From Candidatus Bathyarchaeia archaeon (lineage in GTDB: Archaea > Thermoproteota > Bathyarchaeia > Bathyarchaeales > Bathycorpusculaceae), in the NCBI GenBank assembly GCA_049515895.1, contig JBEKTQ010000014.1, positions 20,943-84,942 on the forward strand: a stretch of 64,000 nucleotides of DNA, written 5' to 3'. A program made the translations under genes and the position numbers. The stretch's first letter is position 1, and every line of letters starts with the position of its first letter. Positions 9,114 through 25,937 of this stretch are shown in pieces. A model generated the notes under the pieces. That model was given only the letters and a program-made list of their open reading frames with translations, was not told the DNA's origin and searched no databases.

Positions 9114-10838
9114 TTATGTTTTGTCCTCGTTCAATATTCTCTTGGCATCTCGAATGTCAATTTTAGCGTGATGCCCGTGTTTTTCTAGCAACGATAACAA
9201 GTTCGAACCATTCAAAAGAGTTATTGGTTTGCCTTTTGCAAAATTGTATGAATCTGACCCATAATCTGAAGTAGTTACTAGTATGCCTTTTGTCGCGCCT
9301 TCATTCATAACAGTGCCAAATAGGTCTCTTACTGCTGAGACACCGACAGTATTGGTGTATCTTTTTGCTTGAATAACAATTTTGCCCCCCCTAATCGGGT
9401 CTGGGTCAAACGCCACAGCATCAACGCCCCCATCTCTACTGGCTTGGGTAATTTTTACTTCTCCGCCATTGGCTTGAAATTCTTTTTCAAATAGTTCTCT
9501 AATTAAGTTCTCAAAATCTTCCCAATCCATTGCTGCAAGATTTGTTGAATTATCTATTTTGTTTTCGACTTCGTAGCTATCGACAAATCTATGGTCCTCT
9601 CTGCTCATTTGTAAAATTGGTTGAACAGGAGTTAATGTGCTTAATTTACTAGCTGCAACCCCTTTTAAGGTCTTAAAGCACGTTTTAGGATCGACGTTTT
9701 TCAAGTCAATGTTCATGAACTCTTCCTTTTTAGCCTGTATACTCAAAATGCAGTTGTTTTCCTCTTTACCCGTAGCTTTATTTATAGAGTTTACCCAACC
9801 GTTAAACGAGATAGCATCGATGACGTTTATTACGTCCGATTCAAAAAGTTCATGTATTGTCCTAAGAGTTATTTTATAGATGATTTCATCGTACATTTTG
9901 TTTATCTGGTTGTCGGGAATCAGAGTCTCTTTGAGTTCTTTTCTTGCTGCTATGTACTTTACCTCTTTTAGCGCTGGAACATCACTTTGAGAAGGAAGTT
10001 CATATTCTATAATTAGCATTTTGTTCTCTGGATTATACTCAACTTCAAAGTTGCTTGGAAAAGATTCGGGGTATTTGGAGTTATTTAAGACCATATCAAA
10101 ATATTCATAGATTGAACCAGGATCTTTGGATAGGTATTTTTGCTTTTGCAGGTCAATGCCAGCGTTAAACTCTTCTTGTTTTTTTAGAAATGCCTTCTTT
10201 CGTTCTTCCCATTGAGAAACGTCATTTTCCCAAGTTTTAAGCTGTTTTTCATAATCCAAATCTAATTCTAGGTTATATTGATCAACAGACGCTTTTTCTT
10301 TTTCCCAGTTTGATAAAGCTGTTGAATATCTTGTCTCAAATTCTTTAATTTTCAGTTCCATTTTTGATTTAAACATCTTTTCAGTAAAAGAAAATGTCGG
10401 CTCTTCTTCCACAGGTTTGTTTGGGTATGTTTTTTTGACTTGTCGGCATGGTTTGATTGGCATTGGTTCTGTATAATGTTCTTTCTTTTTCAATTTTTCC
10501 CAGTTTACCGCATTGTTAATTGACAGTGAATCAAGAAGAATATTTTCGACGGTATTTTGTGCATTAACTGCATCCTGCGTCCTTTTAATTGCCTCATCTA
10601 TGTTGGCTTCTTTTTCTTGATTGACTTCGCGTCGACAAGAAACTATATCCCATTTTTCTCGCCATTTAGCCTTCTGAATGTTAATTTTATTCTCAAGCAT
10701 GTATTGATCAGGGGCGGAAATTATCTTATGCTCATTCAGTCCTTCATGAGACATCTCTACGAAATAACTCAAAACACGGTTTCCAGAGGCGCTAATACGT
10801 TGTCGTTTATACCCCACTTTAATTTGATCATCAGCCAT
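9114..10838 (-). CDS. mrr: Mrr-family (type IV) restriction endonuclease with long N-terminal coiled coil
   Basis: WEDFENLIRELF...SRDGGVDAVA...IQAKRY...VSAVRDL Mrr_cat signature. Confidence 0.85.
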   Translation of the reverse strand: MADDQIKVGYKRQRISASGNRVLSYFVEMSHEGLNEHKIISAPDQYMLENKINIQKAKWREKWDIVSCRREVNQEKEANIDEAIKRTQDAVNAQNTVENILLDSLSINNAVNWEKLKKKEHYTEPMPIKPCRQVKKTYPNKPVEEEPTFSFTEKMFKSKMELKIKEFETRYSTALSNWEKEKASVDQYNLELDLDYEKQLKTWENDVSQWEERKKAFLKKQEEFNAGIDLQKQKYLSKDPGSIYEYFDMVLNNSKYPESFPSNFEVEYNPENKMLIIEYELPSQSDVPALKEVKYIAARKELKETLIPDNQINKMYDEIIYKITLRTIHELFESDVINVIDAISFNGWVNSINKATGKEENNCILSIQAKKEEFMNIDLKNVDPKTCFKTLKGVAASKLSTLTPVQPILQMSREDHRFVDSYEVENKIDNSTNLAAMDWEDFENLIRELFEKEFQANGGEVKITQASRDGGVDAVAFDPDPIRGGKIVIQAKRYTNTVGVSAVRDLFGTVMNEGATKGILVTTSDYGSDSYNFAKGKPITLLNGSNLLSLLEKHGHHAKIDIRDAKRILNEDKT

Positions 10839-10966
10839 TTACGATCCCTGGTACCCCTAATTTTGAATTTTTGGTTTCACAGAATGTTATAGGTTTTTAA
10901 TATAAAAGATTATGTAAGAAACCCATTATAGGCTTTTTTCACCATATTTGTTAAGATATGAATTTC

Positions 10967-11707
10967 TCATGAGATCTTGTTTTCGCACTCTTCGAATCTA
11001 CAGCTTTTGCATTTCTTGATATTACAATGATGGAAAGGTGCAAATTTACCCAAAGCCAACAAAGCAAATCTATTGATCTTTTCCTTCAAGAAATTTTCTG
11101 CCTCCTCAGTTTGGACGCCTTGAAAAACTCTCAGACTCTCCATAGTTGCCTTATCTTTTATGTTGATGATCCAAGCTTTCTTCTCACACGGTATATCAAA
11201 ACAAACCTTTGGGCTAAAAGGGAAGCTCTCACTAAACCGGGAGTTCAAATAAAGTAGAGTCTGAAGCTTTTGCGTATCATACGGCTCAAAAGTGTCTTGA
11301 TACTTCTCTTTATTGGCAGGATATTTCGAATCTTCAACAATCAACGTTCCTTTGCTTCGCAGGACTTTGTCAGCCCTACCTAAAAGCAAAAGCGAAAGCT
11401 TCTCGTTTCCGAAAGATAATTCTCTCTGAAAACGAGTGTATAACCCCTCGCGAGCAAACTCGATATCCCTCGTAAAATCTTCAAGTTCTTCAATGGTGAC
11501 TGGCTTAAAGGTAAAATGCTCTTTCTCAAGCACTTCTTCTTTTTCATGCGATTTAGTGCCATCAATGATTATCTGTGTCTCAGGTGGCTTGATTCCTTTT
11601 AAGAAATGTGTTATGCTGACTTCGCAGTAACCCATGGACGCACAAAAATCAGAAACGGATGCAGTTATTAGCGGGCTTCCATCTCGGGTTTGCTTTATCT
11701 TAATCAT
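10967..11707 (-). CDS. Solo Cas4-like PD-(D/E)XK nuclease (putative Fe-S)
   Basis: N-terminal YCE, GRAD...IVEDSK core, Q-x-x-x-Y, C-terminal CKSCRFEEC; no CRISPR array or other cas genes in the window. Confidence 0.7.
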   Translation of the reverse strand: MIKIKQTRDGSPLITASVSDFCASMGYCEVSITHFLKGIKPPETQIIIDGTKSHEKEEVLEKEHFTFKPVTIEELEDFTRDIEFAREGLYTRFQRELSFGNEKLSLLLLGRADKVLRSKGTLIVEDSKYPANKEKYQDTFEPYDTQKLQTLLYLNSRFSESFPFSPKVCFDIPCEKKAWIINIKDKATMESLRVFQGVQTEEAENFLKEKINRFALLALGKFAPFHHCNIKKCKSCRFEECENKIS

Positions 11708-11846
11708 AATCTAAATCAATCAAGATAGCGCTTAAAAAGCAAACGACTTTGTCATTCAGGCATTTTTAGATTTTCCTCGTTCGATTGGTGAACAAGAAAA
11801 AACTACGAGATGTCGTTAGTTTAAGGTTTCAGTTTGGTATTTGGTT

Positions 11847-13313
11847 TTAGAGTTTGAAGGTTGCACCTGGTTCCTTTAACAGATAGACGTTTTTTGACCA
11901 TTTTGTGTATGCTTGAGCATTTTCTGTATGAATCGGAATAACAGTTTTTGGGCTAACTTGTTCAACAAACTCCTTAAGCTGATTTGCCGAAGCATGCCCT
12001 GAAACATGAGTTGAGGTTATGCCCAATCCAAAATGGTTTATCCAGTTTTGGATTCTCTCCCAATCAATTTCCATTTCCGCATCAAAAGGCTCACAAACCG
12101 ATTTAATGTAAACCGATCCCTCAATGGGGTCAATGTCGATTAGCTCCTTAAGATCAAAGTTGGTACAGAACATTAAGTAGTCTTTTTGGTTGGCTTTGAT
12201 GTCTTTATAGCAGATAGAACGGTCGAGGTATGGTCGTTCCCATGTGTCGTAATCTTGGTTGCGTATCTTCAGGTCACACTTGCTGCTGCCTATGAGTCCC
12301 CAACTTTTCCTGTTAGCATAAAACGTAATGTTCCCATCGTCCAATTTAGGTGCTAATGTGTCTGAGCATTTAGAAAGTTGGTCGAGCAAATATGCTTGCT
12401 TGAGAGAAATTGCGAGCTTCTTATCCATTTTCTTAGCTGCGTTTAGGAAGGAGAGCATTCGATCCGTGTCTCTAACAGACCAATTACAGACTGAAATCCC
12501 TTTTGCACCATTAGAAATGTTACAGATCTCATCTTCCACGTCTGCTTCTTTTTTTGACGACTCCTCATCAACTCTTGTTCCTTCTATAACCAATAAATCG
12601 GGTCTAGCATCTTTGCAGGCATACATAAATTCAGTAGTTTCCTTTTCTCTGCGTCCATGAAATCTAAAATCACCTGTGTAGACAACGGTACCTGACGAAG
12701 TGTGAATAATGTACCCAGTTGCTCCTGAAAGTGAGTGGTCAACTCGATAAGGTTCAATGGTCAGATGCTTTATTTTGAAGGGTTTGCCAAATTCGAACGT
12801 TTGATAGTTTCGGTCAACTTTTAGGTCTTCGTGAGATTGAGTAGTCTTACGGCTTAACTCACCTTTCTTGTTAACGTACGTTTCAAAGCACCGGGTCAAA
12901 TCCGTTATATCGTTGAAGCTTCCTGCGCCTGTATCATTCATCGCCTTAAGAATACGGTAACTTTCTTGCGAGCAGAAAATGGGCAAATCCTCCCGAAGGT
13001 GGTTTATGTAAGAAGCATGGTCCGCATGGGCATGCGATAAAAGCATCCCATCAAAACCCAGCGACTCATGAGGACGCTCCATATGCTTAAGAAAATCTTC
13101 TCTGTAGAGTCCTTTAAGATCTGGAATAAGATTGAACTCGATAAAGTCGCCTAGGCCGTTGCATTTTCTGGGCTGCAAGAACTCCGAAAAATATTTGTTT
13201 GCCTGACTAAAACTCATTCCAAAATCCAAAAAAATCTTTGTGTCTCCGTCTTCAAGCAGAATCTTGTTACCGCCGATCTCGTTAACTCCGCCGTAAAACG
13301 TCAGCTCAACCAT
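11847..13313 (-). CDS. Metallo-beta-lactamase/beta-CASP nuclease (RNase J-like)
   Basis: GGVNEIGGN, SHAHADH, VDHS, YTGDFRFHG, HVSGHA, IPIHTE motifs. Confidence 0.85.
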   Translation of the reverse strand: MVELTFYGGVNEIGGNKILLEDGDTKIFLDFGMSFSQANKYFSEFLQPRKCNGLGDFIEFNLIPDLKGLYREDFLKHMERPHESLGFDGMLLSHAHADHASYINHLREDLPIFCSQESYRILKAMNDTGAGSFNDITDLTRCFETYVNKKGELSRKTTQSHEDLKVDRNYQTFEFGKPFKIKHLTIEPYRVDHSLSGATGYIIHTSSGTVVYTGDFRFHGRREKETTEFMYACKDARPDLLVIEGTRVDEESSKKEADVEDEICNISNGAKGISVCNWSVRDTDRMLSFLNAAKKMDKKLAISLKQAYLLDQLSKCSDTLAPKLDDGNITFYANRKSWGLIGSSKCDLKIRNQDYDTWERPYLDRSICYKDIKANQKDYLMFCTNFDLKELIDIDPIEGSVYIKSVCEPFDAEMEIDWERIQNWINHFGLGITSTHVSGHASANQLKEFVEQVSPKTVIPIHTENAQAYTKWSKNVYLLKEPGATFKL

Positions 13314-13599
13314 AATCGCTCGCTTCTACCGAACACATTAGTTTGAAGTCTTAATAGAAGCTTCTGAATTCCGGGCCTAGATTTTATAAGTTCTAACCTT
13401 AAACGCTGTAGGCCTCTAATGGATTTGCACTGAATCGGAGTCGGAACTATCATTTTAAGATCACTAACTTCCTCTAAAAATATAGAAAAAGCGCGCACGA
13501 GTGCCATGACTCAAGCTATGCTTGACGGTTTCGCAAATGTTTGCTAATGAATATATAGTAAATTTCTTAAACGAATTTGCCAAATAGTATTGGTGATGT

Positions 13600-15444
13600 T
13601 TGGTGTCTGTTCCAAAAGGTATTCATGGAATCGCAAAGAATGTTTTTGAACTATTAATGAACAAAAAATACAAACTTGACTATTACCAAAGAGAATATAC
13701 TTGGGAGACTTCGAACATAATCGAGCTCTTGGAAGATCTTACTTCCAAATTCTTTGTAGCTTTTGACAAGAATGATAATCGCGAAGACGTTAAGAAATAT
13801 CCTACTTACTTTCTTGGTTCAATAGTAATTAATGAAAAAGAGAGCGGTAATTTCATAATTGATGGGCAGCAACGTCTTACATCCTTAACTCTCCTTTTAA
13901 TGTACCTTAATAATTTGCAGCAAAACATTCCAGAAAAAGTCAGTTTAGACTATTTGATTTTTTCAGAATCATTCGGAAAGAAATCATTCAACCTTGAAGT
14001 AGATGAAAGAGACGCATGCATGGCCGCTCTTTACAAAAACAGTATTTTGGATGTGACAAACGCTAACGAATCGGTTAAGAACCTTTATGCACGTTACCAA
14101 GACATCAAAGAAAATTTTCCTGAAGATTTGGAAAATAACAGTCTACCCTTTTTCATCGATTGGTTGTTAAACAGAGTTGAAATGGTTGAAATTAGAGCAT
14201 TCAGCGACGAAGATGCATACACTATTTTTGAGACAATGAACGATCGTGGTGTCACACTAAACCCAACTGATATGCTAAAAGGGTACCTTCTAACGAATAT
14301 GCATCCAGACAGCAGGTTGGCTGCAAATCAATTATGGCGAAGCCAAGTGGGCGACCTAATAAAAATAGACAAAAATGAGGAAACTAATTTCTTTAAGGTG
14401 TGGCTGAGAGCAAAATATGCTCAGTCTATACGGGAGAGAAAAAGAGGCGCGATTAACCAAGATTGGGAGAACATTAACTCTTATCATCGATGGTTACGTC
14501 ATGAATCCAAAGAATTGAAGCTTGAGAACCCAAACGATTTCTCAAATATTGTGACCTGTAATTTTAAATTCTTCTCCACTCAGCATATTAGAAATCTCAT
14601 AGCTTCTGTCATGCTGAGCGAAGGAATGGAATACGTTTATTATAATGCCAGCAATGAATTTACGCTTCAATACCCTTTATTGCTTGCACCTCTCAAAACT
14701 GCTGATGACAACAATGTTATCGACAAAAAAATCAGGCTCGTGGCTGGATATATTGACATATTTATAGCCAGAAGAGTTTGGAATCAAAGAACACTCGGCT
14801 ACTCTTCAATTGTCTACACTATGTTCAACTTAATGAAGGAGATAAGGGACAAGACTGTTGAGGAACTCGTAAGTATTCTTACAATGAAGGTTCAACAAAT
14901 GGAAGAAACCTTCGAGTCTTACCCTGCATTTTCCTTGAACCAGCAAAATCGTAGATACATCCATCGTTTGTTGGCTAGAATTACACAACATATCGAGGAG
15001 CAAAGTGGAATTCCATCGCGCTATGAAGATTACATTTCAAGTGAAATAGCCAAACCCTTTGAAATCGAACACATATGGGCTAAGAAATTTGATTACCATA
15101 CAGATGAATTTGATAATGATTACGAATTTCAGGAATACAGAAATCGTATAGGCGGATTACTTTTAGTTCAAAGAGGTTTTAACCAAAGTTATGGAGAACT
15201 GCCGTACGTAGATAAGTTACCCCTCTATTTTGGTCAAAACCTTCTAGCAAAAAGCCTGAACCCAAATTGTTACAAATCAAATCCTAGCTTTGAAACTTAC
15301 ATCAAAGCGAGTGGCTTGCAGTTTCAGGCTCATCAAAATTTCAAAAAAAGCGATCTTGAACAGCGGATGATGCTTTACAAAGAAATTTGCAAGGAAATCT
15401 GGAACCCAAATAGGTTCGCGGCAGAATTAATGGGTACCGTCTAG
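13600..15444 (+). CDS. DUF262-DUF1524 (GmrSD/SspE-like) modification-dependent nuclease
   Basis: YQREYTW, IDGQQRLT, FETMNDRG (DUF262); IEHIW...N..G.L...N HNH-like DUF1524. Confidence 0.9.
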   Translation: MVSVPKGIHGIAKNVFELLMNKKYKLDYYQREYTWETSNIIELLEDLTSKFFVAFDKNDNREDVKKYPTYFLGSIVINEKESGNFIIDGQQRLTSLTLLLMYLNNLQQNIPEKVSLDYLIFSESFGKKSFNLEVDERDACMAALYKNSILDVTNANESVKNLYARYQDIKENFPEDLENNSLPFFIDWLLNRVEMVEIRAFSDEDAYTIFETMNDRGVTLNPTDMLKGYLLTNMHPDSRLAANQLWRSQVGDLIKIDKNEETNFFKVWLRAKYAQSIRERKRGAINQDWENINSYHRWLRHESKELKLENPNDFSNIVTCNFKFFSTQHIRNLIASVMLSEGMEYVYYNASNEFTLQYPLLLAPLKTADDNNVIDKKIRLVAGYIDIFIARRVWNQRTLGYSSIVYTMFNLMKEIRDKTVEELVSILTMKVQQMEETFESYPAFSLNQQNRRYIHRLLARITQHIEEQSGIPSRYEDYISSEIAKPFEIEHIWAKKFDYHTDEFDNDYEFQEYRNRIGGLLLVQRGFNQSYGELPYVDKLPLYFGQNLLAKSLNPNCYKSNPSFETYIKASGLQFQAHQNFKKSDLEQRMMLYKEICKEIWNPNRFAAELMGTV

Positions 15445-15457
15445 AAGTTCCATAGGG

Positions 15458-16603
15458 ATGAATCAAATAACTGACAACTCTTTTGAGTTGAGCATGCGAC
15501 AGAACCAAAATCAGCTTGAGTGCAAACTAACAAAAACCCCTTGCATATCTATGACTGTAGCTTCAAAGGAATTCTTCCTAGAACAAAAAACACTTTCAAG
15601 CATAATAGATTCCTACAGCACCGTTGCTAAGCTGGTTGGAAAAAAGAAGACAAGAAATATAGATTTTTTTGAAGCTCTATCGATTTTGGGCGCTGAAATC
15701 GGCTTTGGGATCGCAAATATTTTTGAACATTTTGGATTAATGTACACCAAAAGGCGTATCAACCTAACACTAAAACTGGATGATTGGACTCGAAGAATCC
15801 CATGGGAACTAGCCATGGTCCCAGATTACCCAGAACAACTGCTCTGCGAAAGATTCAATATTGGAAGAGCAATGGATGTTGAATGTAAAAATCAATGGGA
15901 AACAGCTCCTAACACGAAAACAAGTAAACGGAGTTTAAAATCATTAGTTGTCGGACTAAATTACACGAAGAATTCAATATACACTCCATTAGATCGGTCA
16001 GAAGAAGATGCTAAAGCAGTACACGAATACTTGACAAAATTCTCAAAAAGCAAGAATGGAAGAGACTTGGAAGTTCTTCCAAAACTAATAGGTGGAAACG
16101 CAAGAAAAGAGACATTGGAAAAACGGTTAAAAGAAGGAATAACTATGTTTCATTTTTCTGGGCATGGAGAACTTTACAGAAATATTGGCAAAATAATTCT
16201 AGCTAATGATAAACAATTAACAACTAAGGAACTCAGTTGCATATTCTATAACAATCAAACTAGGGCACCGACATTTTCTTTCATGAACGCATGCGAGACC
16301 TGCCTTCAAAAAAATGGTGAATCGGACATCCATGATTGGGCCCTCGCAATGGCTACATATGGCGCTAGGGCTCTAATCGGTACTTTTTGGAGCGTTATGG
16401 ATGAAGATGCAACCGATTTTTCATTAGCATTCTATAGGTATTTCTTGAAGGAAGGAAAGACGATAGGCGATTCTGTACGGAGAGCAAGACTCTTTGTTAA
16501 GGATAAGAAAACTGAAGGAAACGATTTAGACCCCATGGTCACTTGGTCCGCATTCGTGCTGTATGGTCCTCCTATGTTAAAAGCAAGAGATATTTTGGTA
16601 TAA
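15458..16603 (+). CDS. Stand-alone CHAT-domain (caspase-like) protease
   Basis: IPWELA, FHFSGHG (catalytic His), NACET (catalytic Cys), GTFWSV.D, WSAFVLYG. Confidence 0.85.
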   Translation: MNQITDNSFELSMRQNQNQLECKLTKTPCISMTVASKEFFLEQKTLSSIIDSYSTVAKLVGKKKTRNIDFFEALSILGAEIGFGIANIFEHFGLMYTKRRINLTLKLDDWTRRIPWELAMVPDYPEQLLCERFNIGRAMDVECKNQWETAPNTKTSKRSLKSLVVGLNYTKNSIYTPLDRSEEDAKAVHEYLTKFSKSKNGRDLEVLPKLIGGNARKETLEKRLKEGITMFHFSGHGELYRNIGKIILANDKQLTTKELSCIFYNNQTRAPTFSFMNACETCLQKNGESDIHDWALAMATYGARALIGTFWSVMDEDATDFSLAFYRYFLKEGKTIGDSVRRARLFVKDKKTEGNDLDPMVTWSAFVLYGPPMLKARDILV

Positions 16604-16786
16604 AGTAAGTTCTGTTCGTAAAAGATAAAATTCCCAAGCACGGCGCGCCGCGCTAAAATGTAGAGGTTTTTGGGCTAAGGAACAAATTTCATCGTACGTT
16701 TGCCTAACCATCCAAAGAGCTAAACGGAGTGCGCTGCCGCAATCCCTACAAAAACATATATACTATTAGCCTGAAACCTCGTTGCT

Positions 16787-17902
16787 ATGACAATAATTGT
16801 CGCAGTGAAGTTCTCCAACGGAGTAGTTGTTGCAACAGATAGTAGGTCCATTTATGGAGAAGCACAATATGTACGAGACACGGAAAGAAAGATAGATACC
16901 TTAAACGATAAAGTTGCCGTCACTTCTTCAGGAATCAGGGCAGCGTCTAATAGAATATTCAAAGAGCTTAGATCTTATGTGGAAGCAAATGAGAATCTAA
17001 CTTTTGACGAAATTGTTAGTGAATGTGAAGATCTCATGAGGAACTTTTATAAAAGGTACAGTGGTCGTCTGAAGGAAGAGTTAGAGGACGGTTGGAGTTT
17101 TGAGCTGTTTTCCTCGGAAAGAATGGTTATTATTGAATCTGATGGAGTTGCTGACGAAGAAGAAAGTTATCTTTGTGATGGAAGTGGTACTCCCTATGCT
17201 GAGTACATTCTGCGACAGCGTTACAAGCCAGATCTTACAGAACAAGAATGCAAAGAACTTGCCTGCTATGTTGTTCTTCAAACATCTCTGATAGACCCTA
17301 ATGTCGGAGGACCCGTAAATCTGTGCGTTCTAAAAGAAATAGGTCTTAAGCACTTAACACGCCCTGAAATAGACGAGATTGTCGAGAATATCAAAGAAAC
17401 TCCTATAGAACAACAAATAAAAATTCAAAGTTTAGTTGAGGAAATTGTTGAGGAAAGACGATGGATTAATGACTTGTTTAAAAACAAATTCAAGACAGCC
17501 TTATTCAAACAGGATGAATACGCCATTTCGCAGATTCAAAAAACTTGCAAAAACGAAAACGATTTTACCAACAGAATATCGGCGCTAGCGGTATTGATAG
17601 ACCGAACGGAATCATTAGATGTTGATGACAGACTTGGAGAAAAAAACAAGGCTTCCATCAATCGGTTGCAAGTCTTCGCAGATAAAAATATGCCCAAGCT
17701 AAATCCTGAGTGTATTAAAAATCTAAGAGAAATCTACACGCTTAGAAGCCACAAGATGCCAATTCACGAAGATGATCCAAGATTAATGCAGATACTCCTT
17801 CAATGGGAATACAAGATACCACCTAACTGGGGAAATCTTTGGGAGAAAGCTCTCACAAAATATCGGGACAGCCTAAAGATGTTGAAAGCAGCTGTTCAGT
17901 GA
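16787..17902 (+). CDS. Proteasome beta-type Ntn protease fused to a C-terminal HEPN-like domain
   Basis: M-T-IIVAV...ATDSR...RKI...GSG...IDPNVGG (Thr1/Asp17/Lys33/Ser129/Asp166 equivalents); C-terminal helical domain with LRSHKMPIH. Confidence 0.75.
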   Translation: MTIIVAVKFSNGVVVATDSRSIYGEAQYVRDTERKIDTLNDKVAVTSSGIRAASNRIFKELRSYVEANENLTFDEIVSECEDLMRNFYKRYSGRLKEELEDGWSFELFSSERMVIIESDGVADEEESYLCDGSGTPYAEYILRQRYKPDLTEQECKELACYVVLQTSLIDPNVGGPVNLCVLKEIGLKHLTRPEIDEIVENIKETPIEQQIKIQSLVEEIVEERRWINDLFKNKFKTALFKQDEYAISQIQKTCKNENDFTNRISALAVLIDRTESLDVDDRLGEKNKASINRLQVFADKNMPKLNPECIKNLREIYTLRSHKMPIHEDDPRLMQILLQWEYKIPPNWGNLWEKALTKYRDSLKMLKAAVQ

Positions 17903-18064
17903 GTCTTGTCTTTATATGATACATAATTTTTCAAGGATGAAAAAATCGACTGCAAGAAATGCATTAAAATGATTTATTTCCGCAGAATTTTAGCATCCGG
18001 AGGCGACCGTTTACAGTAAAGCTAAAGAGATCCAACCGAATAAGTTATAGGCCAGTGGGATCTC

Positions 18065-19159
18065 TTGGCTAAAAAACATGTATTGCTCGTCGAACCTGAC
18101 TATTATACTCAATTCCCGCCGCTAGGACTGCTAAAGCTTTCCACTTTTTATAAGAATCAAGGTTCAACTACAGAATTGATTCGTGGAACTAAGGATTGTA
18201 GCCGGGAACCTGATTTAATTTACATTACCAGTCTTTTCACGTGGTCTTGGGAACCAGTGTGGAAAGCAGTTAGATTCTACTCCACCTCATTTCCAAGTTC
18301 AGACCTATGGCTGGGTGGACTTTACGCTTCTTTGATGCCCGAGCATGCAGCACTAAGTGGAGTTCACACTGACCACGTTTTCAAAGGAATATTTCCTGAA
18401 GCTGAAAATCTTCGTCCAGATTATAGTCTTGTACCAGAATGGAATCAAAAGGAAAAAGCGAGTATTCTCTTCTCATCCAGAGGTTGCATAAGAAACTGTG
18501 GATTCTGCGCAGTTCCACAATTGGAAGGCAAAATAGTTACTAACAGCTCACAAATTAGTGATTTGCTTTATCCTGAACACACTAAGATCATATTATTTGA
18601 CAACAATTTTTTGGCTTCTTCAAAATGGGAAAGCACTCTTGAGGAGATTAAGAGTCTCGATTTGAGAGTGGATTTCAATCAAGGTTTGGATGCTAGACTG
18701 ATAACACCTTTAGTTGCTAAGAAATTGGCAAAGGTCAAAATTGACAAGGTAATTAGATTGTCGTATGACAATTGCCAAACTGGAACAAATGTTGAGAAAG
18801 CAATTAAGCTTCTCAAATCTGAAGGAATTAATGGAAAAAGCATACTCGTGTACACGCTATTCAATTTCACAGACGATCCACAGGACTTTTTTGAACGCAT
18901 GAAAGATGTTCTCAAATGGGGCGCAGTCTGTTACCCGATGCGTTATGAGCCTTTGCGAACACTTTTCAAAAACAAATATGTTTCTTCAAAATGGACAGCT
19001 AACGAACTTGAAGCAATTCAGAGAGCACGCAGAGTAATCGGTTTTGGAGGAGCTTTTGCACCTCATAAGGGCATGCTAAACGTAAAAGTGGAAAACTGTA
19101 ACACTTTCGAAAAAGCTTTCAAGGAGTTTATGAATCCAGAGGCGAAGATAGAAGAATGA
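18065..19159 (+). CDS. Radical SAM enzyme with B12-binding-like N-terminus
   Basis: FPPLGLLKLS...ITSLFTW...LGGLYAS; SRGCIRNCGFC (CxxxCxxC); DNNFL; FNQGLDAR. Confidence 0.85.
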   Translation: MAKKHVLLVEPDYYTQFPPLGLLKLSTFYKNQGSTTELIRGTKDCSREPDLIYITSLFTWSWEPVWKAVRFYSTSFPSSDLWLGGLYASLMPEHAALSGVHTDHVFKGIFPEAENLRPDYSLVPEWNQKEKASILFSSRGCIRNCGFCAVPQLEGKIVTNSSQISDLLYPEHTKIILFDNNFLASSKWESTLEEIKSLDLRVDFNQGLDARLITPLVAKKLAKVKIDKVIRLSYDNCQTGTNVEKAIKLLKSEGINGKSILVYTLFNFTDDPQDFFERMKDVLKWGAVCYPMRYEPLRTLFKNKYVSSKWTANELEAIQRARRVIGFGGAFAPHKGMLNVKVENCNTFEKAFKEFMNPEAKIEE

Positions 19160-20466
19160 TTTGTACATGTTGCGGTTTTGAAATTCAAGGTCAAACTCAC
19201 CAAATCGAAAATGGAGAAAAACAAGTTTGTGACAAATGTTGGAATAATCCTTCTTTCTTTTTTTCTGAAAAAGCAAAGACGGACACTCGTTTCAAACTGC
19301 TTTCCGAAATTGCTGTACAAAATCAAAACAGCCCAAAAACAATCGAAATAAGTGTTCTAAAATTATCTCAGAAAAACATTGATCTTTACATTGGAAAAAT
19401 GAAATCCAAGGATATATTGCAACTCTACGAAGTTGACAAGTTTAAAGATGAGGAACTTGAAGGCTATCAACGTGAACAATATGAAGAAAGGACATCAGAA
19501 CTAATAGAATACCTTACTGAATGTCCCATTGCCGTAATGCCAAGCCTCTTTGTCAGTCTGAGGAATGCGAAATTTGTAGCATCGAAAGACGATTTTGGTA
19601 TTCTCCGAATTCCAAAGGTCAGAGGTGCAATTTGGATAATCGACGGTCAACATAGAGTAGGAGGATTTGAAAAGCTTTATCAGAAGTTTACTTATCAGCG
19701 AAAACCAAATGAAATTTCGACCGAAACATTTGCAACACTCATGGATTATGAACTCCCAATAGTTTTCATAGATACGCAAAAAGCAGCAGTAAAAACGAAT
19801 ACCTTGAAAATGGGAAAAAGCGAAATAATGCCAGAAGACCTTGAGAGGGCAATATTTTTTGTTGTCAACAAGACTCAGAAAGGAATTAGCTCTTCGCTAA
19901 AAGATGCGTTACTTTACCGCCTGAATGTTAGCGGAATTGATGGAATTCCAGCTTTAAGAAAAGAAAAGTGGAGAATTCAAGCTGCACACGTTGGTATTTC
20001 TTTAAATCGAGAGCTTGATTCACCTCTTAAAGGTTTGATTAATATTGGTGGAAAAGCGGGAACAAGAAAGCCAATCCAGTTGAACTCTTTTGTTTCCTCC
20101 TTAGAACTGCTTTTCAACGACAAGAATTTTGCGAAATTGGAATATAACAAGCAAGTCCAGTTTTTAAAATTCTATTGGGAATCCCTGAGAAAAAATGTTC
20201 CTCAAGCATTCGATTTAGCATCTTGGAGAGATTATATGCTTCTAAAAGCTATTGGAGTTTATTGTGTTCATTGGCTTGCGTTAGATGTCTTCAACATCTG
20301 CTTAACGAACGAACAGCGTTTTGATGAGCAGGAGACTTTAGATAAAATTGTTAGCAAGATGAGTGATTTTGACTGGAAAACACAAACGTCGCTATTGTCA
20401 ACATTGGGCGGTCTCAAAGGTGCTAAGCGGGGCTACGAGAAAATCAAACTTTGTTTAACAACCTGA
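19156..20466 (+). CDS. DGQHR-domain (DndB/DpdB-like, ParB-superfamily) protein with N-terminal Zn finger
   Basis: GYQR, IIDGQHR, FFVVNKTQK; N-terminal CTCC...CDKC; ATGA overlap with the radical SAM gene. Confidence 0.85.
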   Translation: MICTCCGFEIQGQTHQIENGEKQVCDKCWNNPSFFFSEKAKTDTRFKLLSEIAVQNQNSPKTIEISVLKLSQKNIDLYIGKMKSKDILQLYEVDKFKDEELEGYQREQYEERTSELIEYLTECPIAVMPSLFVSLRNAKFVASKDDFGILRIPKVRGAIWIIDGQHRVGGFEKLYQKFTYQRKPNEISTETFATLMDYELPIVFIDTQKAAVKTNTLKMGKSEIMPEDLERAIFFVVNKTQKGISSSLKDALLYRLNVSGIDGIPALRKEKWRIQAAHVGISLNRELDSPLKGLINIGGKAGTRKPIQLNSFVSSLELLFNDKNFAKLEYNKQVQFLKFYWESLRKNVPQAFDLASWRDYMLLKAIGVYCVHWLALDVFNICLTNEQRFDEQETLDKIVSKMSDFDWKTQTSLLSTLGGLKGAKRGYEKIKLCLTT

Positions 20467-20569
20467 CAACCTAAAATCCTCTTTCTTTTCAGAAAACTGG
20501 TAACACATAATAGATGTTATATATCAAGTCTGCCAACTGTTAGACAACCGCGAGGTTACGACCTAAGAA

Positions 20570-22672
20570 ATGAGCCTGAAGGGTCTTTCTCTTAAGAAAT
20601 CTTACAATTCAGATACCGACAATATCCTTCAAGATTTCTACATTCGATCTCTTTCCGTTTCAATAGAATATAAAAGACTAACAGGTTTCTTCTCGTCAAC
20701 GACCCTCGCTTTAGCGGCAAAGGGGATGACTGCCTTTATTCGTAATGGCGGGACGATGAAACTGGTTACAGGTGCACGTTTTCAAGAAGCAGATATTCGA
20801 GCAATAAAAGAATCCCTTGAATCTCCTGAAGAAATTTTGAAAGAAGAAATGTTAAAAGAGCTTAACACTCTCGAAGACAAATTCATAAAGGATCATGTAC
20901 GTGCTTTAGGTTGGATGATTGTTAACAAGCGATTAAAAATAAAAGTTGCAATAGTCCTCTCAGATGATGGGTATCCTCTTGAGTCGAGAAAAGTGGAGAA
21001 ACAAGGTATATTCCATCAAAAAGTGGGAATATTGGAAGATTTTGAAGGAGATATGGTTTCTTTCAGCGGTTCAGACAACGAAAGTGCACACGGTTGGCAA
21101 AAAAACATTGAAGAATTCAAAGTTTTCAGAAGCTGGGAAACAGGTGAGTCGGAGTACTTTCAATCCGATTTGGAAAAATTCAATCGGTTCTGGGATGGAA
21201 ACGCTATCAGAACAAAAATCATCGACATCCCAAAAGCAATTGAGGAGAAGCTTATCCAAATTGCTCCTAAAAACTTTGAAGAATTAGACTTAGAGCAACC
21301 TGAAGTAGTTCAAAGTAACGTTGCTGAACCTAAACTTAGACCTTATCAAGTAAAGGCAGTCGGGGATTGGATAAACAATGGCTACTATGGAATTTTTGAA
21401 ATGGCTACAGGAACAGGCAAGACCTTCACCGCATTAGCATGCATGGATACACTGATGAAAAAAGAAAACAAAATAGTCACAGTAATCAGTGCACCTTACA
21501 ATCATCTATGCGAGCAATGGATAGCTGAAACTGACAAATTCGGCATCAAGACCGTTAAATTAGTCTGCGATTCCACTGAACCTCATTGGAAGGACAAACT
21601 AGTCGATAACCTGATTGACCTTGAAAATGGAGTGATTGAAAACCTGACGATTTACACTACTCATAACACATTTTCTTCAACGGATTTTACGGAAATAGTT
21701 AGAGAAAACAAGTTAGATAACGCTAATCTGAAGTTCTTTCTTATTGTCGATGAGGTGCATGGAATAGGAGCACCAATTAGGCGTAATGGGCTTATTGACG
21801 AATACGATTTTCGATTAGGACTCAGTGCTACTCCGAAAAGATGGTTTGATTACGAGGGAACTGATAGAATATTTGATTACTTTAAAGATGTAGTCTTTAG
21901 TTTTCCGTTGAAAGATGCCATTCAAGCTGGTTTTCTAACACCATATGTGTACAAACCATTTTTTGCATTTTTAACAGAAAAAGAAATGAAAAGTTATGAA
22001 GAGGAGACTCGTAAAGTCTCAAGAGCATATTATGCTTCGAGGAATGACGTTGAAAGAGACGAGGCTTATACTCTACTATGTATAAAACGACAACGTATCG
22101 TTCGAAATGCTGAAAACAAGCTGATTGAGTTCCAAAAAATATTGGATAAAATTGGTTCTTTGCAAAATTGCCTAATTTACAGTTCACCCCAGCAAATCAA
22201 GATTGTCCAAGAAACTTTAAACAAAAGAAATATCATTCAACACAAGTTCACACAGCAGGAAGGTACAAAACCTGAAAGTAAGTTTGAAGGACTTTCCGAG
22301 AGAGATTTTCTAATCAAAAGATTTTCAGAGGGGTTCTATCAGGCATTAGTCTCTATGAAGTGCCTTGATGAAGGAGTCGATGTACCTCCAGCTCGGGTTG
22401 CAATTATCTTAGATAACTCAGGTAATCCACGAGAGTACATTCAACGAAGAGGGCGAGTCTTGCGTCTTTTTCCTGGAAAGTCAATAGCTACAATTTACGA
22501 TATAATTGTTGAGCCGAGATTAAATAACGCAACCCCAATTGAACTTAAGGAACTTGAAAAAAAGATAGTTTTAAAAGAACTTCAGAGATACAGAGACTTC
22601 GCTGAATCCTCCAATAATGTTGACGAATGCTTGAGGACGTTAAATGAAATAGAAGCAGCATATGGCATTTGA
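20570..22672 (+). CDS. pbeA: PLD(HKD)-nuclease + SF2 helicase, PbeA-like
   Basis: FHQKVG...FSGSDNES PLD-like motif; MATGTGKT, DEVH, LSATP, LDEGVDVP, IQRRGRVLR. Confidence 0.75.
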   Translation: MSLKGLSLKKSYNSDTDNILQDFYIRSLSVSIEYKRLTGFFSSTTLALAAKGMTAFIRNGGTMKLVTGARFQEADIRAIKESLESPEEILKEEMLKELNTLEDKFIKDHVRALGWMIVNKRLKIKVAIVLSDDGYPLESRKVEKQGIFHQKVGILEDFEGDMVSFSGSDNESAHGWQKNIEEFKVFRSWETGESEYFQSDLEKFNRFWDGNAIRTKIIDIPKAIEEKLIQIAPKNFEELDLEQPEVVQSNVAEPKLRPYQVKAVGDWINNGYYGIFEMATGTGKTFTALACMDTLMKKENKIVTVISAPYNHLCEQWIAETDKFGIKTVKLVCDSTEPHWKDKLVDNLIDLENGVIENLTIYTTHNTFSSTDFTEIVRENKLDNANLKFFLIVDEVHGIGAPIRRNGLIDEYDFRLGLSATPKRWFDYEGTDRIFDYFKDVVFSFPLKDAIQAGFLTPYVYKPFFAFLTEKEMKSYEEETRKVSRAYYASRNDVERDEAYTLLCIKRQRIVRNAENKLIEFQKILDKIGSLQNCLIYSSPQQIKIVQETLNKRNIIQHKFTQQEGTKPESKFEGLSERDFLIKRFSEGFYQALVSMKCLDEGVDVPPARVAIILDNSGNPREYIQRRGRVLRLFPGKSIATIYDIIVEPRLNNATPIELKELEKKIVLKELQRYRDFAESSNNVDECLRTLNEIEAAYGI

Positions 22673-22687
22673 TAAGAGAGAGAGAAA

Positions 22688-22885
22688 ATGTCGTCAGTAA
22701 ATAGAAAGATAATAAACCAAATTGAAAATAGCGACTACACGCCTGAAATCAAAGAACTGCTAAACTCCTTACTACAAATAGAAGCCAGAATCGCCGAAGA
22801 CAAGAAACCTCACTATTCGGAAGATTATGACAGAGTGATAAAAAACCTTGCCAAGAAACGAGGGTATCGGGAGGATGAAGAGTGA
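22688..22885 (+). CDS. pbeB: Small helical protein, PbeB-like
   Basis: 65 aa; assigned by position between helicase and ATPase, coupled to the next gene. Confidence 0.55.
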   Translation: MSSVNRKIINQIENSDYTPEIKELLNSLLQIEARIAEDKKPHYSEDYDRVIKNLAKKRGYREDEE

Positions 22886-24870
22886 ATCTCGACTATCTTC
22901 AAATGAAAAATTTCCGACAATATCAGGACGCTCGAATAGAGTTCTCTCAATCTCCAACAAGAAATTTCACAATTATTCAAGGGGTAATGGGGGCTGGAAA
23001 AACTAACATTCTAAATGCTGTAACTTGGTGTCTCTTTGGAGACGAGAAACACATTGATAAGAAATACAAAGGGCTTCCAATTGTTAATACTTCAGCCCTT
23101 TCAAAATGCGAGGGAAAAGTTTGCGAAGTCAAAGTTGAACTGCAAATTATTCAGAGCGATGGAAAGCGAATTAGAGTAACCAGATGTGAGAATTGGAGAG
23201 AGCAAAACAGTAACTTATCAAAAATTAGTATGCAACATGACTTTTCTATAATGAGAGAAACTGGAAGGGATTGGGTTGGACCAATTTATGGGGATGATGC
23301 GCAATATATCGTTGATAGCCTAATTCCTCCTTCGATTGAGGAATACTTCTTTTTTGACGGCGAACGAATGAATGATTACTTCAGGGAAAATACTGGTAAG
23401 GACATCAAAAGTGCAGTTTTTAAAATTTCTCAATTAGAACTTTGCGAATCGCTAATTTCACACCTATCGGCAAGAAGAAGTGAGTATCTAAGACTATCAA
23501 GAGGACTAAGCTCGAAAGCAAATGATATTAAAATGATTGTTGAAACCCTCGAGAAGTCGCAAGAATCAGACAAAGAACGTTTGAAAGAACTATTGAGAGA
23601 TCAAGCAGAAGCACAACGAATAGAAAAAGAATACAGTGATAAGCTACGAAATTCATCGCTTGAAAGAATTGAGAGCTTAGAAGAACGCCGAGTTGGTTTG
23701 GAAGACGATTTAGAGCGTATCGCTGATGACATCGAGGAACTAGAAAAAGAGAAAGTGCAATTCCTTCATAAGAATATGCCAATAATCTTTGCTTTTGATG
23801 CCCTTACAAAAACTAAATCGCTGATAGAAGGGCGAAAAGAAGCTGGAATGATACCTCCGCCAGTTAAGACAGTTTTTATCGACAGCTTACTTAAAAAAGG
23901 AAAATGCATTTGCGGAAGTGACATAACCGCCAAAGACGAGCTTTCTTGCACAAGAAGAAAAAGAGTTGAGGCTTTTCTAAGGCAAAGTGAATTGTCGGAA
24001 ATGAGCAATGACCTAATCAACTGCAATGTTCAGATTCAAGCTATGATTGACCAAGTCAAAGTTTTTCCAGATACTTCAGTACAGTTAGGTAAAAGATTAA
24101 GAGAACTCCAAACACTTAAGGACACAAAAAACACGGACGTTGAAAAAATAAAGGTAGAAATTTCGCAAAGCAATGCGGAGAATATTAAAGAATGGGGAAA
24201 AGAAAGAGACAAATATAATGAGAAAAAAATCAAAATAGGAAATGAAGCGGCCATTCTCAATAGTACCATTGGCAGACGTGACAACATAATTAGAGCAAGA
24301 ACGAGTGAATTTACAAGGGAACTGAAGAAAGAGGCAAGGCACAACTCCCTTGTTAGTCTAATGACTTTTTGTGAAGAAGGAATACATGCCGCACAAGAAG
24401 TCAGAGATGCTATTATGAAAAATGTCAAAGATGAGATATGTAAGAAAACAAGTGAGCAATTTCTCTCACTGATTTGGAAAAAAGGAACCTACAATGGCGT
24501 TGTAATTGATGATGACTACAATATCTCAGTGCCCCATGTCTCTGGGCGAGAAGGGCTGGGAACACTTTCGGCTGGGGAACGGCAAGTTTGTGCCTTATCA
24601 TTCATGGCGGCGTTGAATAGCGTTTCTGGTTTTGACGTTCCAATCATAATAGACACACCTTTAGCAAGAATATCTAATGAACCGACAAGAAGCATTGCTG
24701 AGAATCTTCCTAATTATCTGCCTAACAAACAAGTTTCATTGCTAGTAACAGACAAGGAGTATACCCCTGAAGTAAAAGAAACCTTAAGCAAAGTAGTCGG
24801 TAAAACATACATAATAAATTTCATAGAAAAAGACTATGGTGGTTTATCGGAGCTGGTGTTTCAATCATGA
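22882..24870 (+). CDS. pbeC: SMC/Rad50-like ABC ATPase of the DndD/PbeC (CxC hook) clade
   Basis: NFRQY, GVMGAGKT (Walker A), YFFFDGE, coiled coil with CICG hook, LSAGERQ signature, IIDTPLAR (Walker B). Confidence 0.8.
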   Translation: MNLDYLQMKNFRQYQDARIEFSQSPTRNFTIIQGVMGAGKTNILNAVTWCLFGDEKHIDKKYKGLPIVNTSALSKCEGKVCEVKVELQIIQSDGKRIRVTRCENWREQNSNLSKISMQHDFSIMRETGRDWVGPIYGDDAQYIVDSLIPPSIEEYFFFDGERMNDYFRENTGKDIKSAVFKISQLELCESLISHLSARRSEYLRLSRGLSSKANDIKMIVETLEKSQESDKERLKELLRDQAEAQRIEKEYSDKLRNSSLERIESLEERRVGLEDDLERIADDIEELEKEKVQFLHKNMPIIFAFDALTKTKSLIEGRKEAGMIPPPVKTVFIDSLLKKGKCICGSDITAKDELSCTRRKRVEAFLRQSELSEMSNDLINCNVQIQAMIDQVKVFPDTSVQLGKRLRELQTLKDTKNTDVEKIKVEISQSNAENIKEWGKERDKYNEKKIKIGNEAAILNSTIGRRDNIIRARTSEFTRELKKEARHNSLVSLMTFCEEGIHAAQEVRDAIMKNVKDEICKKTSEQFLSLIWKKGTYNGVVIDDDYNISVPHVSGREGLGTLSAGERQVCALSFMAALNSVSGFDVPIIIDTPLARISNEPTRSIAENLPNYLPNKQVSLLVTDKEYTPEVKETLSKVVGKTYIINFIEKDYGGLSELVFQS

Positions 24871-25811
24871 GCGAAAGAAAAAAGCCAGACAGATTTTATG
24901 TGGAAAAGAAGGATAGAGAAGACTGGAATAGACTCAAAGACAAAGACAGCCCATTTGCAGGTGCTGACAATAAAGATGTTTTCATAGCTGCAATGATGAC
25001 AGGTTACTTTGAAAAAGCCGAATTTGAGCTTAAGACTAAAGACGGGTATTTCTTCGCAGACAATTTAAAGCCGCAGGAAGAGGCAATTGTAAAAGCTATT
25101 GCTGTTTCAAAAACTGGAAGTCTGAATGTTCTCCTTGACACTGAGAGAGTTTACGAAATTGCTGAGCAGTATGCCACAGGAGGACTAAAAATCCTCAAAA
25201 ACAAGGTCTTTAGCGGTGAATACGGGTCATACTCCAAAAAACTTGAAGCTGAATTACTCCGACAGTACACCAAGATTACCCAAAACGTACCTGCTCCTCC
25301 GACTGTTGATGAACTTGAAGGAATACCATTAATGGATCTAATTTTAGGAGGAGAAACAGACAAAGTAGAGCTCAAATCTTCATTCCTATGGGATTACCAA
25401 AAAAAGTCATACTCCAAAGAAGTCAAGATCGCTGTGGTTCGAGCAATTGCATCTTTCATGAATTCAGAAGGTGGCTTTTTGATTATTGGAGTGGACAATG
25501 ACCAAAATCCACTTGGATTAGAGCTTGACTGGACGCAATGTCAGAACAGTTTTGATGTGTGGAAGCAGACTCTTGCTAACGCTATAAACACTTACCTTGG
25601 AAGAATTAACAACATTCTTGTGACTAGCCGTAAAGAGAAATTTGAAGATAAAGACGTTGTAATACTGAGGATAAAGAAATCGCCACACCCTGTATATCTA
25701 ACCTACGAAGACAAAAAACAGGATTTCTTCATACGGGGAGATGGTACGTCTCAGCAATTGAGCATGAGCGATACAACTCAATATGTGCAGGAACATTGGA
25801 AAGATCAGTAG
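24867..25811 (+). CDS. pbeD: PbeD/DndE-like protein fused to an AlbA_2 (Schlafen-like) domain
   Basis: N-terminal NKDVFIAAM..GY...IAEQYATGGL..L; C-terminal ETDKVELKSS...IASFMNSEGGFLIIGVDND...FFIRGDG. Confidence 0.7.
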   Translation: MSERKKPDRFYVEKKDREDWNRLKDKDSPFAGADNKDVFIAAMMTGYFEKAEFELKTKDGYFFADNLKPQEEAIVKAIAVSKTGSLNVLLDTERVYEIAEQYATGGLKILKNKVFSGEYGSYSKKLEAELLRQYTKITQNVPAPPTVDELEGIPLMDLILGGETDKVELKSSFLWDYQKKSYSKEVKIAVVRAIASFMNSEGGFLIIGVDNDQNPLGLELDWTQCQNSFDVWKQTLANAINTYLGRINNILVTSRKEKFEDKDVVILRIKKSPHPVYLTYEDKKQDFFIRGDGTSQQLSMSDTTQYVQEHWKDQ

Positions 25812-25937
25812 CTGATCAAGTTGTTTATCGAGAATGAGCGATTCCCTTATTCTTATTCTTAAGACAAGGCTTGCTTAGCAGGGATAAAAGCTTAAAAACG
25901 CTTCAAGGTTAAAGGGAATAACTCTCGACAACTGGCT

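Follow-up and report, generated by a model that had tools for sequence, protein, structure and literature searches.

What is a proteasome-type peptidase doing in an archaeal defence island, joined to a helical domain that resembles HEPN RNases? The question is raised by a gene on the plus strand (16787..17902, 371 amino acids (aa) plus stop) of a 64,000-nucleotide (nt) stretch of DNA from Candidatus Bathyarchaeia archaeon (GenBank assembly GCA_049515895.1, contig JBEKTQ010000014.1, positions 20,943 to 84,942), which we call the window and to which all coordinates refer. A sequence-only reading of the window had described the gene as a proteasome beta subunit joined to a HEPN-like domain and had proposed a role in defence. 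Members of the proteasome family are known for protein degradation, and one is known to act as a ligase. Judged by profile matches and a predicted model, the first 204 residues of the protein form a T1 peptidase domain of proteasome beta type, though a divergent one. The remaining 167 make up a helical mobile module with an invariant R...H pair, which occurs alone or behind unrelated N-terminal domains. Our preferred reading, to which we assign a probability of roughly 0.55, is that the gene encodes a stand-alone accessory defence protein that combines two probable enzymes, a HEPN-like RNase and a proteasome-type peptidase, and would act by the mechanism set out below.

The N-terminal domain

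The T1 (proteasome beta-type) N-terminal nucleophile (Ntn) hydrolase domain spans residues 1-204 (16787..17398, plus strand) and is recognised by profiles, fold and conservation alike. The Pfam family Proteasome (PF00227) matches residues 3-181 at E 1.2e-18, with 67.9 bits against a cut-off of 22.4 bits, and a Protein Data Bank (PDB) search with a profile of 22 relatives returned archaeal and eukaryotic beta subunits, the best of them the M. jannaschii beta subunit (3h4p, E 7.8e-15). An AlphaFold2 (AF2) model of the whole protein has a predicted local distance difference test score (pLDDT) of 83, and Foldseek aligned the model with 20S beta subunits at TMt 0.80-0.85 and E 2e-12 (1j2q_H: TMt 0.85, root-mean-square deviation 2.7 Å). 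The same two-domain layout is found in 29 full-length relatives (~30-81% identity), and together with Pfam and AF2 this bears out the fused architecture that had been assigned to 16787-17902. Misassembly or a gene-fusion artefact was considered and ruled out, because the layout recurs in these 29 relatives on separate contigs.

The residues that carry proteasome chemistry, which in proteasomes are Thr1, Asp17, Lys33, Gly47, Ser129 and Asp166, are conserved down to relatives of ~30% identity: Thr1, Asp17 and Gly47 are kept in 29/29 full-length relatives, and Lys33, Ser129 and Asp166 in 28/29. In the numbering of the open reading frame (ORF), M1-T2, D18 and G49 are present in 29/29 and K35 and D170 in 28/29. 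The catalytic set named in the sequence-only reading for the first ~200 aa (Thr after Met, DSR, K, GSG, D..GG) is present and conserved, with DSR kept as D18 29/29, S19 23/29 and R20 29/29, GSG as G132 29/29, S133 28/29 and G134 28/29, and D..GG as D170 28/29, G174 27/29 and G175 20/29. A point absent from that reading is that the position of Ser169 is occupied by Val in 29/29.

The Thr1 codon (16790-16792, plus strand) directly follows the initiator Met. The ATG is the first start codon after a stop, in a stop-to-stop frame of 375 codons of which only ~4 lie upstream, so that there is no room for a propeptide. The N-terminus read from the ORF is Met-Thr, without a propeptide, and on this reading removal of the initiator Met alone exposes the nucleophile Thr.

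Is the protein nevertheless a subunit of the host proteasome? On the archaeal beta model (NCBIfam TIGR03634) it scores 53-54 bits (53.1, and 54.3 in the genome scan) against an equivalog cut-off of 224 bits. The host genome has an alpha subunit of its own (287 bits, contig C7) and two betas (240.7 and 228 bits, contigs C15 and C2). These are the genome's three other PF00227 loci, and the window lies on contig C14, in agreement with the earlier statement that no alpha subunit lies nearby. Host beta1 and beta2 both carry N-terminal extensions before their TTT/TTV site, unlike the fusion protein. We built a quick IQ-TREE phylogeny (SH-aLRT support only) of 56 rows, comprising 14 fusion N-domains, 33 beta-like proteins without the C-terminal domain (C-domain), 8 housekeeping betas and 1 alpha as outgroup. 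A single starred clade (98) holds all 14 fusion N-domains as well as 4 short rows, possibly fragments. It is nested within a starred clade (99) of 44 non-housekeeping rows, outside which beta1 and beta2 each have a starred clade to themselves. On the archaeal beta model, ten of the stand-alone beta-like relatives reach 24.5-82 bits. By these scores and this tree, the N-domain falls within a non-housekeeping clade of beta-like proteins starting Met-Thr, and the fusion protein is not a housekeeping PsmB. The grouping with PsmB that the sequence-only reading had named as speaking against its proposal was not observed.

The gene is also unevenly distributed. A protein search of 60 genomes (36 same-genus and 24 same-order) found no full-length ortholog in any of them. 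It returned housekeeping subunits only, at E 1e-4 to 1e-9 and no more than 22-29% identity, plus a C-domain-only frame in one congeneric genome, G014 (locus L024, G014:C1:2510623-2511141), where a 199-aa frame without a beta domain matches residues 193-367 at 29% identity. These searches support an accessory gene of patchy occurrence.

The C-terminal domain

The helical HEPN-like domain comprises residues 205-371 (17399..17899, plus strand), as outlined by the AF2 model, the domain map, the profile alignment to HepT and the fold matches. Modelled alone with a 67-sequence alignment, it is predicted to be all-helical (AF2, pLDDT 92, predicted TM score 0.89), with helices at 7-36, 58-73, 108-121, 132-140 and 149-171 in the numbering of the modelled piece. 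The helix at 58-73 starts with a C-x-N-E-x-D-F patch, and an insert at 74-107, which contains a further helix (91-102), separates the second and third core helices. Within the sequence LRSHKMPIH (17741-17767, plus strand) lies the Rx6H motif R320-S-H-K-M-P-I-H327 (17744..17767, plus strand), a candidate RNase active site by its conservation and its place in the model: the Arg (R121 in piece numbering) ends helix 108-121, the His (H128) sits in the next loop, and the last helix is kinked. The sequence-only reading had described the last ~165 aa as helical with LRSHKMPIH, and the predicted fold and the conserved R and H agree with it.

Conservation of the motif extends well beyond the fusion. 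R320 is kept in 29/29 full-length relatives and H327 in 28/29, and R and H are invariant in the 67-sequence C-domain alignment, which is drawn from varied architectures. Among 89 C-domains of at least 140 aa, the spacing is Rx6H in 73, Rx5H in 14 and Rx4H in 1 (LRNALIH), and 1 has no H. The residue after R is S in 68, N in 9 and another residue in 3 of the 80 copies that match an LRx...PxH pattern, and S in 29/29 fusions. A second conserved patch, C254-K-N-E257-N-D259-F260-T-N-R263 (17546..17575, plus strand), has C254 and F260 in 29/29 relatives, E257 in 27/29, D259 in 24/29 and R263, four residues after D259, in 20/29; its C and F are nearly invariant across the 67-sequence alignment.

Do these features make the domain a HEPN? 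As defined in the main text of the HEPN survey (PMC3710099), HEPN domains have an up-down core of four helices, with helix 2 separated from helix 3 by an insert and helix 4 often kinked, an Rx4-6H motif in which a polar residue, most commonly N, D or H, follows the R, and often an acidic residue in helix 2, as Ex3[KR]. The motif of the C-domain fits Rx4-6H, and the Ser after R is polar, yet not the typical N, D or H choice. In the predicted model the position of the insert and the kinked last helix agree with the published layout, as does the rule of an R at a helix end with the H in the following loop (PMC3710099). The E257, D259 and R263 positions, at the start of the candidate helix 2, may provide an Ex3[KR]-type feature, and the second patch with E257 and D259 is a candidate for the HEPN helix-2 acidic site.

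Some comparisons of fold and profile favour a HEPN as well. In the Foldseek search of the PDB that the sequence-only reading had suggested, HepT HEPN toxins occupy each of the top 7 rows for the C-domain (best E 0.027, probability 0.90), with AF0298 and another HEPN toxin further down. In the VIA fold search, ~11 of 50 rows are HEPN-superfamily structures by our own count from entry titles and the 2013 paper's family list (Roquin with two entries, sacsin, AF0298, RnlA, TT1696, SO_3166, YggD, MtlR, HepS and AbiA), over 100-145 aligned residues. A structure search of the ESM Atlas found a HepT-like_2 cluster (TM 0.50/0.56), and also clusters with a similar domain after GmrSD_N or an AAA_11 helicase; HepT-like_2 (PF20797) itself, sought in 251 genomes, has matches in only 7, not enough for an alignment. 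We built a HepT alignment from 21 genes of the relatives' genomes and compared it by hhalign with the C-domain profile. The global score was 19.9 (P 8.3e-4), with query 31-172 placed onto HepT positions 1-113 of 118 and the Arg and His of the two motifs coinciding; the score was 5.2 with the template reversed and at most 8.9 in 30 column shuffles, so that the true alignment lies above 31/31 controls. Among Pfam models assigned to HEPN, DUF3644 gave weak matches in 3/67 C-domain members (best E 0.016, below significance) and none to the window domain itself. The HEPN survey lists DUF3644 as a HEPN family associated with restriction-modification operons (PMC3710099, main text). A search of 301 genomes of the phylum for DUF3644 found it in none, a result that is uninformative as the control genomes were blank too.

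Several results weigh against the assignment. No Foldseek PDB match to the C-domain reaches E 1e-3 or better, and in the VIA searches, of which a second run agrees with the first, generic helical bundles rank above HEPN structures. The window C-domain matches 0 Pfam families at E up to 10, no HEPN Pfam model is significant for any of the 67 relatives, and NCBIfam has no match in this part of the protein. A PDB sequence-profile search with the C-domain returned chance-level rows only, with no HEPN entry among them. PADLOC has no model for the fusion protein, and among the 67 C-domain relatives it gives scattered weak single hits only. An hhalign comparison with a 19-protein PF05168 alignment gave no signal (score 4.5, shuffles up to 5.8), a test of little power because its positive control, HepT against PF05168, reached only 10.2. 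The complex prediction for two C-domain copies (median score 0.34 against a mark of 0.42) counts neither way on dimerisation. Of the HEPN assignment that had been proposed, the R/H motif, its helix-end position, the alignment to HepT and the HepT rows in Foldseek thus stand, and significance at the level of a Pfam family does not. Weighing motif, predicted layout and profile alignment against these results, we hold that the C-domain is quite probably a HEPN domain.

A family of variable architectures

How widely does each half occur? A word-index search gave 28 related proteins, and an exhaustive search of 50%-identity representatives gave 432 at E 1e-3 or better, of which the best 150 were listed; six incomplete matches of the word-index search (P0008, P0012, P0021, P0022, P0027 and P0028) were left out of alignment A1. 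We classified 176 proteins, taken from the matches listed, with local hidden Markov models of both halves. Both domains are present in 44 (29 of them full-length and starting Met-Thr), the C-domain without beta in 67, and beta without the C-domain in 65, of which 39 start Met-Thr. Members are annotated at source as '20S proteasome alpha/beta subunit', 'proteasome beta subunit' or 'hypothetical protein'.

More than 100 aa precede the domain in 33 of the 67 C-domain-only proteins, and these N-terminal regions form 19 groups unlinked by BLAST; the C-domain also occurs alone, with no N-terminal partner. The recognised types ahead of the C-domain are a Ras-like GTPase, in one of the 19 groups, HEAT repeats, in a separate singleton, and a weak CARDB; for most of the regions Pfam has no family. 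Nine proteins of 326-424 aa (P0178-P0183, P0185, P0186 and P0190) share another recurrent N-terminal type. As an observation in its own right, proteins P0048-P0191 make up a large unnamed HEPN-like family of bacteria and archaea that is missing from Pfam and PADLOC.

At least one protein, P0164 (479 aa) of a neighbouring clade, joins a beta-like domain to a different C-terminal region of ~260 aa that has no family or fold lead, and an Atlas search with these 260 aa gave no usable lead. Judged from this protein, there are hints that the beta clade takes on varied C-terminal domains. No relative was found in profile scans of genome contigs with alignments A1 and A4 or in viral contigs scanned with A1, and a search with alignment A2 for longer homologous proteins gave none. 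A search of viral folds (BFVD) had no match at E 0.001 or better.

Genomic context

Does the neighbourhood support a role in defence? The fusion gene lies in a run of defence genes at ~9114-25811. Upstream are an Mrr-type type IV restriction endonuclease, a PD-(D/E)XK protein, a beta-CASP metallo-hydrolase, GmrSD and a CHAT protease; downstream are a weak radical-SAM-like ORF, a DGQHR (DndB/DpdB-like) protein, PbeA (747 bits), PbeC (440 bits) and an SLFN/AlbA_2 protein. The gene had been said to lie between defence genes, and this is true, with defence families on both sides. Gaps of 183 nt to the upstream CHAT gene and 162 nt to the next downstream gene set it apart, and the sequence has a TATA-like stretch, ATATATAC (16756..16763, plus strand), 24-31 nt ahead of the ATG. 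If this stretch is an archaeal TATA-like box, as it may be, the gene would be transcribed from a promoter of its own, with a short or absent leader.

Outside the window the picture is more varied. A metagenome scan gave 18 loci, one of them identical to the window; L010 lies inside L011, and L013 overlaps L007. No window neighbour, CHAT included, stands beside the family in the independent metagenome loci, save one weak PbeC match, to the SMC/ABC-type ATPase of L006. A functional link to the upstream CHAT protease was dropped, as no CHAT homolog accompanies the family there. No neighbour is common to the independent metagenome loci that carry the fusion family, and the gene therefore appears to act as a single-gene unit. 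The 20 flanking ORFs that were scanned include an IS-type integrase, an 807-aa DNA methylase, an SMC/ABC-type ATPase and a 1231-aa AAA protein. On the other side of the balance, the flanks also hold Laminin_G_3, DUF998, PHP, an APH-like kinase and a GcrA-like protein, and 9/20 ORFs have no family. The defence-island setting is clear in the window, and elsewhere the flanks only suggest one; the expectation that the protein would occur mainly in defence islands holds for the window, and the other metagenome loci have varied neighbours, many without a Pfam family. One metagenome copy of the fusion gene (L021:5407-6548) is decayed, as three ORFs of 90-106 aa stand there in place of one.

The island has several features of its own. 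A Pbe/Dnd-type cluster lies directly downstream of the fusion gene (18065-25811), and no DndC, DndD or DndE modification gene is recognisable among the ORFs scanned there. Upstream, at 13600-16603, GmrSD (614 aa) is followed after 13 nt, on the same strand, by a 381-aa stand-alone CHAT/caspase-like protease for which PADLOC has no model; by sequence, the pair looks like an operon that couples a type IV restriction enzyme with a protease. On the minus strand, 10967-13507 holds a beta-CASP metallo-beta-lactamase (488 aa), a 68-aa ORF overlapping its start and the PD-(D/E)XK protein. The beta-CASP protein is RNase J-like with a weak Cas14/type VII match, and these three genes may be another unnamed system. 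The G+C content is 0.364-0.394 over 10001-26000, compared with up to 0.44 in much of the rest of the window, a small difference that fits acquired DNA.

Proposed function and alternatives

What might such a protein do? Two conserved candidate active sites lie in one polypeptide, the nucleophile has no propeptide, the distribution is accessory and no partner gene is conserved. A constant part across single-protein defence architectures usually marks the effector, and with a constant C-module behind variable fronts a shared effector would therefore be expected. In the reading that we prefer, the C-module would be a HEPN-superfamily, metal-independent RNase that serves as toxic effector, and in the fusion version the proteasome-like domain would be the regulatory or sensing part. 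The beta domain would probably assemble into HslV/Anbu-like rings with the HEPN modules outside, by analogy with stand-alone proteasome homologs (PMC8665760). HEPN pairing and activity would be controlled through the peptidase by an event of infection, be it an engaged substrate, an inhibitor, self-cleavage or altered stacking, and the paired modules would cleave RNA, leading to growth arrest or abortive infection. Since the catalytic Thr/Asp/Lys set is conserved, peptidase chemistry, and not the fold alone, is probably needed for this control. There is no MNT antitoxin gene adjacent to the fusion gene, and with no antitoxin next to it the HEPN-like module would have to be restrained in cis. 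A more specific proposal, that the proteasome-fold ring is an immune sensor, is speculative: a propeptide-less T1 ring would sample cell proteins, and a viral protein that engages or blocks the sites or alters stacking would pair the outer HEPN modules and switch on RNA cleavage.

Two exceptions among the fused relatives speak against a protein with two enzymes, as P0002 lacks Lys33 and P0031 lacks the His. A quite different arrangement would be a specialised self-compartmentalising protease, of the Anbu, WPH or ACC-like kind, whose C-domain is a non-nuclease adaptor, cap, oligomerisation or ligand module in which R and H bind a ligand or partner. This is consistent with the generic helical bundles that outrank HEPN structures in the VIA searches, with the lack of a significant HEPN family match, and with the several new proteasome homologs that, according to the main text of PMC8665760, carry C-terminal extensions or domains facing away from the ring as possible interaction sites. 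It fits less well with R and H in 67/67 varied sequences at a spacing of 4-6 and with a polar residue after R, which is the HEPN active-site pattern, or with a HepT alignment that is in register on the motif. A module that also occurs by itself, and that follows at least 19 unrelated N-terminal regions, is better explained as a shared effector than as a cap specific to proteasomes. We consider this protease arrangement rather unlikely.

The roles of the halves might instead be reversed, with the HEPN-like domain sensing an RNA or nucleotide signal without broad cleavage of host RNA and the T1 peptidase acting as the effector that degrades host or viral proteins when the sensor has bound its signal. 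Selection on the full peptidase catalytic set favours this view, as do the RNA-binding, non-catalytic HEPN domains such as MtlR that the HEPN survey describes (PMC3710099, main text); MtlR and YggD are also among the fold rows. The same source states that HEPN domains without catalysis lose the Rx4-6H motif, whereas in the C-domain family this motif is the most conserved feature, and it is the C-domain that is constant across architectures and the N-terminal part that varies. We regard a reversal as improbable. Least probable by far, with only a few chances in a hundred, is a housekeeping beta paralog that is built into the host 20S particle, its tail being an accessory. The source name '20S proteasome alpha/beta subunit' and the archaeal beta model as best NCBIfam match would agree with it; against it stand the 53-54 bits on that model, the missing propeptide where host beta1 and beta2 have N-terminal extensions, the position outside the housekeeping clades and the lack of a full-length match in the 36 same-genus or 24 same-order genomes.

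Comparison with known systems

How does the protein compare with what has been described? Its N-domain shares with the archaeal PsmB (T1) the fold and the set Thr1/Asp17/Lys33/Gly47/Ser129/Asp166. It differs from PsmB in having no propeptide, Val at the Ser169 position, a 167-aa C-domain, no alpha subunit nearby, a separate clade and a patchy occurrence. Like the fusion protein, HslV, Anbu, BPH and the 22 families that Fuchs, Alva and Lupas described in 2021 (WPH, ACC and PHI among them) are beta-like, stand-alone and without alpha. HslV models score the fusion protein at only ~15-16 bits, and WPH, ACC and PHI are compared by description only.

On the side of the C-domain, the comparison is with the HepT/HEPN toxins of MNT-HEPN pairs (for example SO_3166, PDB 5yep; 7bxo; PF01934). 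These have Rx4H where the fusion has Rx6H, and the fusion C-domain has in addition a long extra N-terminal helix and a larger insert, with a sequence similarity below family-level significance. The DUF3644 / EC042_2821 HEPN family (Anantharaman et al. 2013) provides the only HEPN-assigned Pfam model that the C-domain family touches. ApeA and the prophage HepS, likened here by description only, are single-protein HEPN defence genes with a sensing part, which as far as those descriptions go is not proteasome-like.

A description of a proteasome-HEPN pairing was not found in the literature searched on HEPN, proteasome homologs and defence. In the main text of Fuchs et al. 2021 (PMC8665760) the words 'HEPN', 'fused', 'defense' and 'toxin' do not occur; in the main text of the HEPN survey (PMC3710099) 'proteasom' does not occur. 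Within this scope, the main texts of both surveys and the literature searched, the earlier remark that no example had been described holds. Nor does that literature place any proteasome-family member in an antiviral or conflict system or join one to a nuclease-type effector.

If the preferred reading is right, the folds that sense or regulate in single-protein HEPN defence genes are extended by a new one, and a testable function can be given to one of the numerous proteasome homologs still uncharacterised. On the more speculative ring-sensor proposal, a self-compartmentalising protease would have been reused in archaea to trigger an abortive-infection RNase. Little of archaeal defence has been charted, and the gene would offer a compact one-gene system with clear sites for point mutants (Thr1, R320 and H327). 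Independently of that reading, the analysis defines a widespread unnamed HEPN-like module with an R-H spacing of 4 to 6 and at least 19 unrelated N-terminal partners. Set against known systems, the fusion is a variant that combines two known kinds of protein, the single-protein HEPN conflict genes and the non-canonical proteasome homologs.

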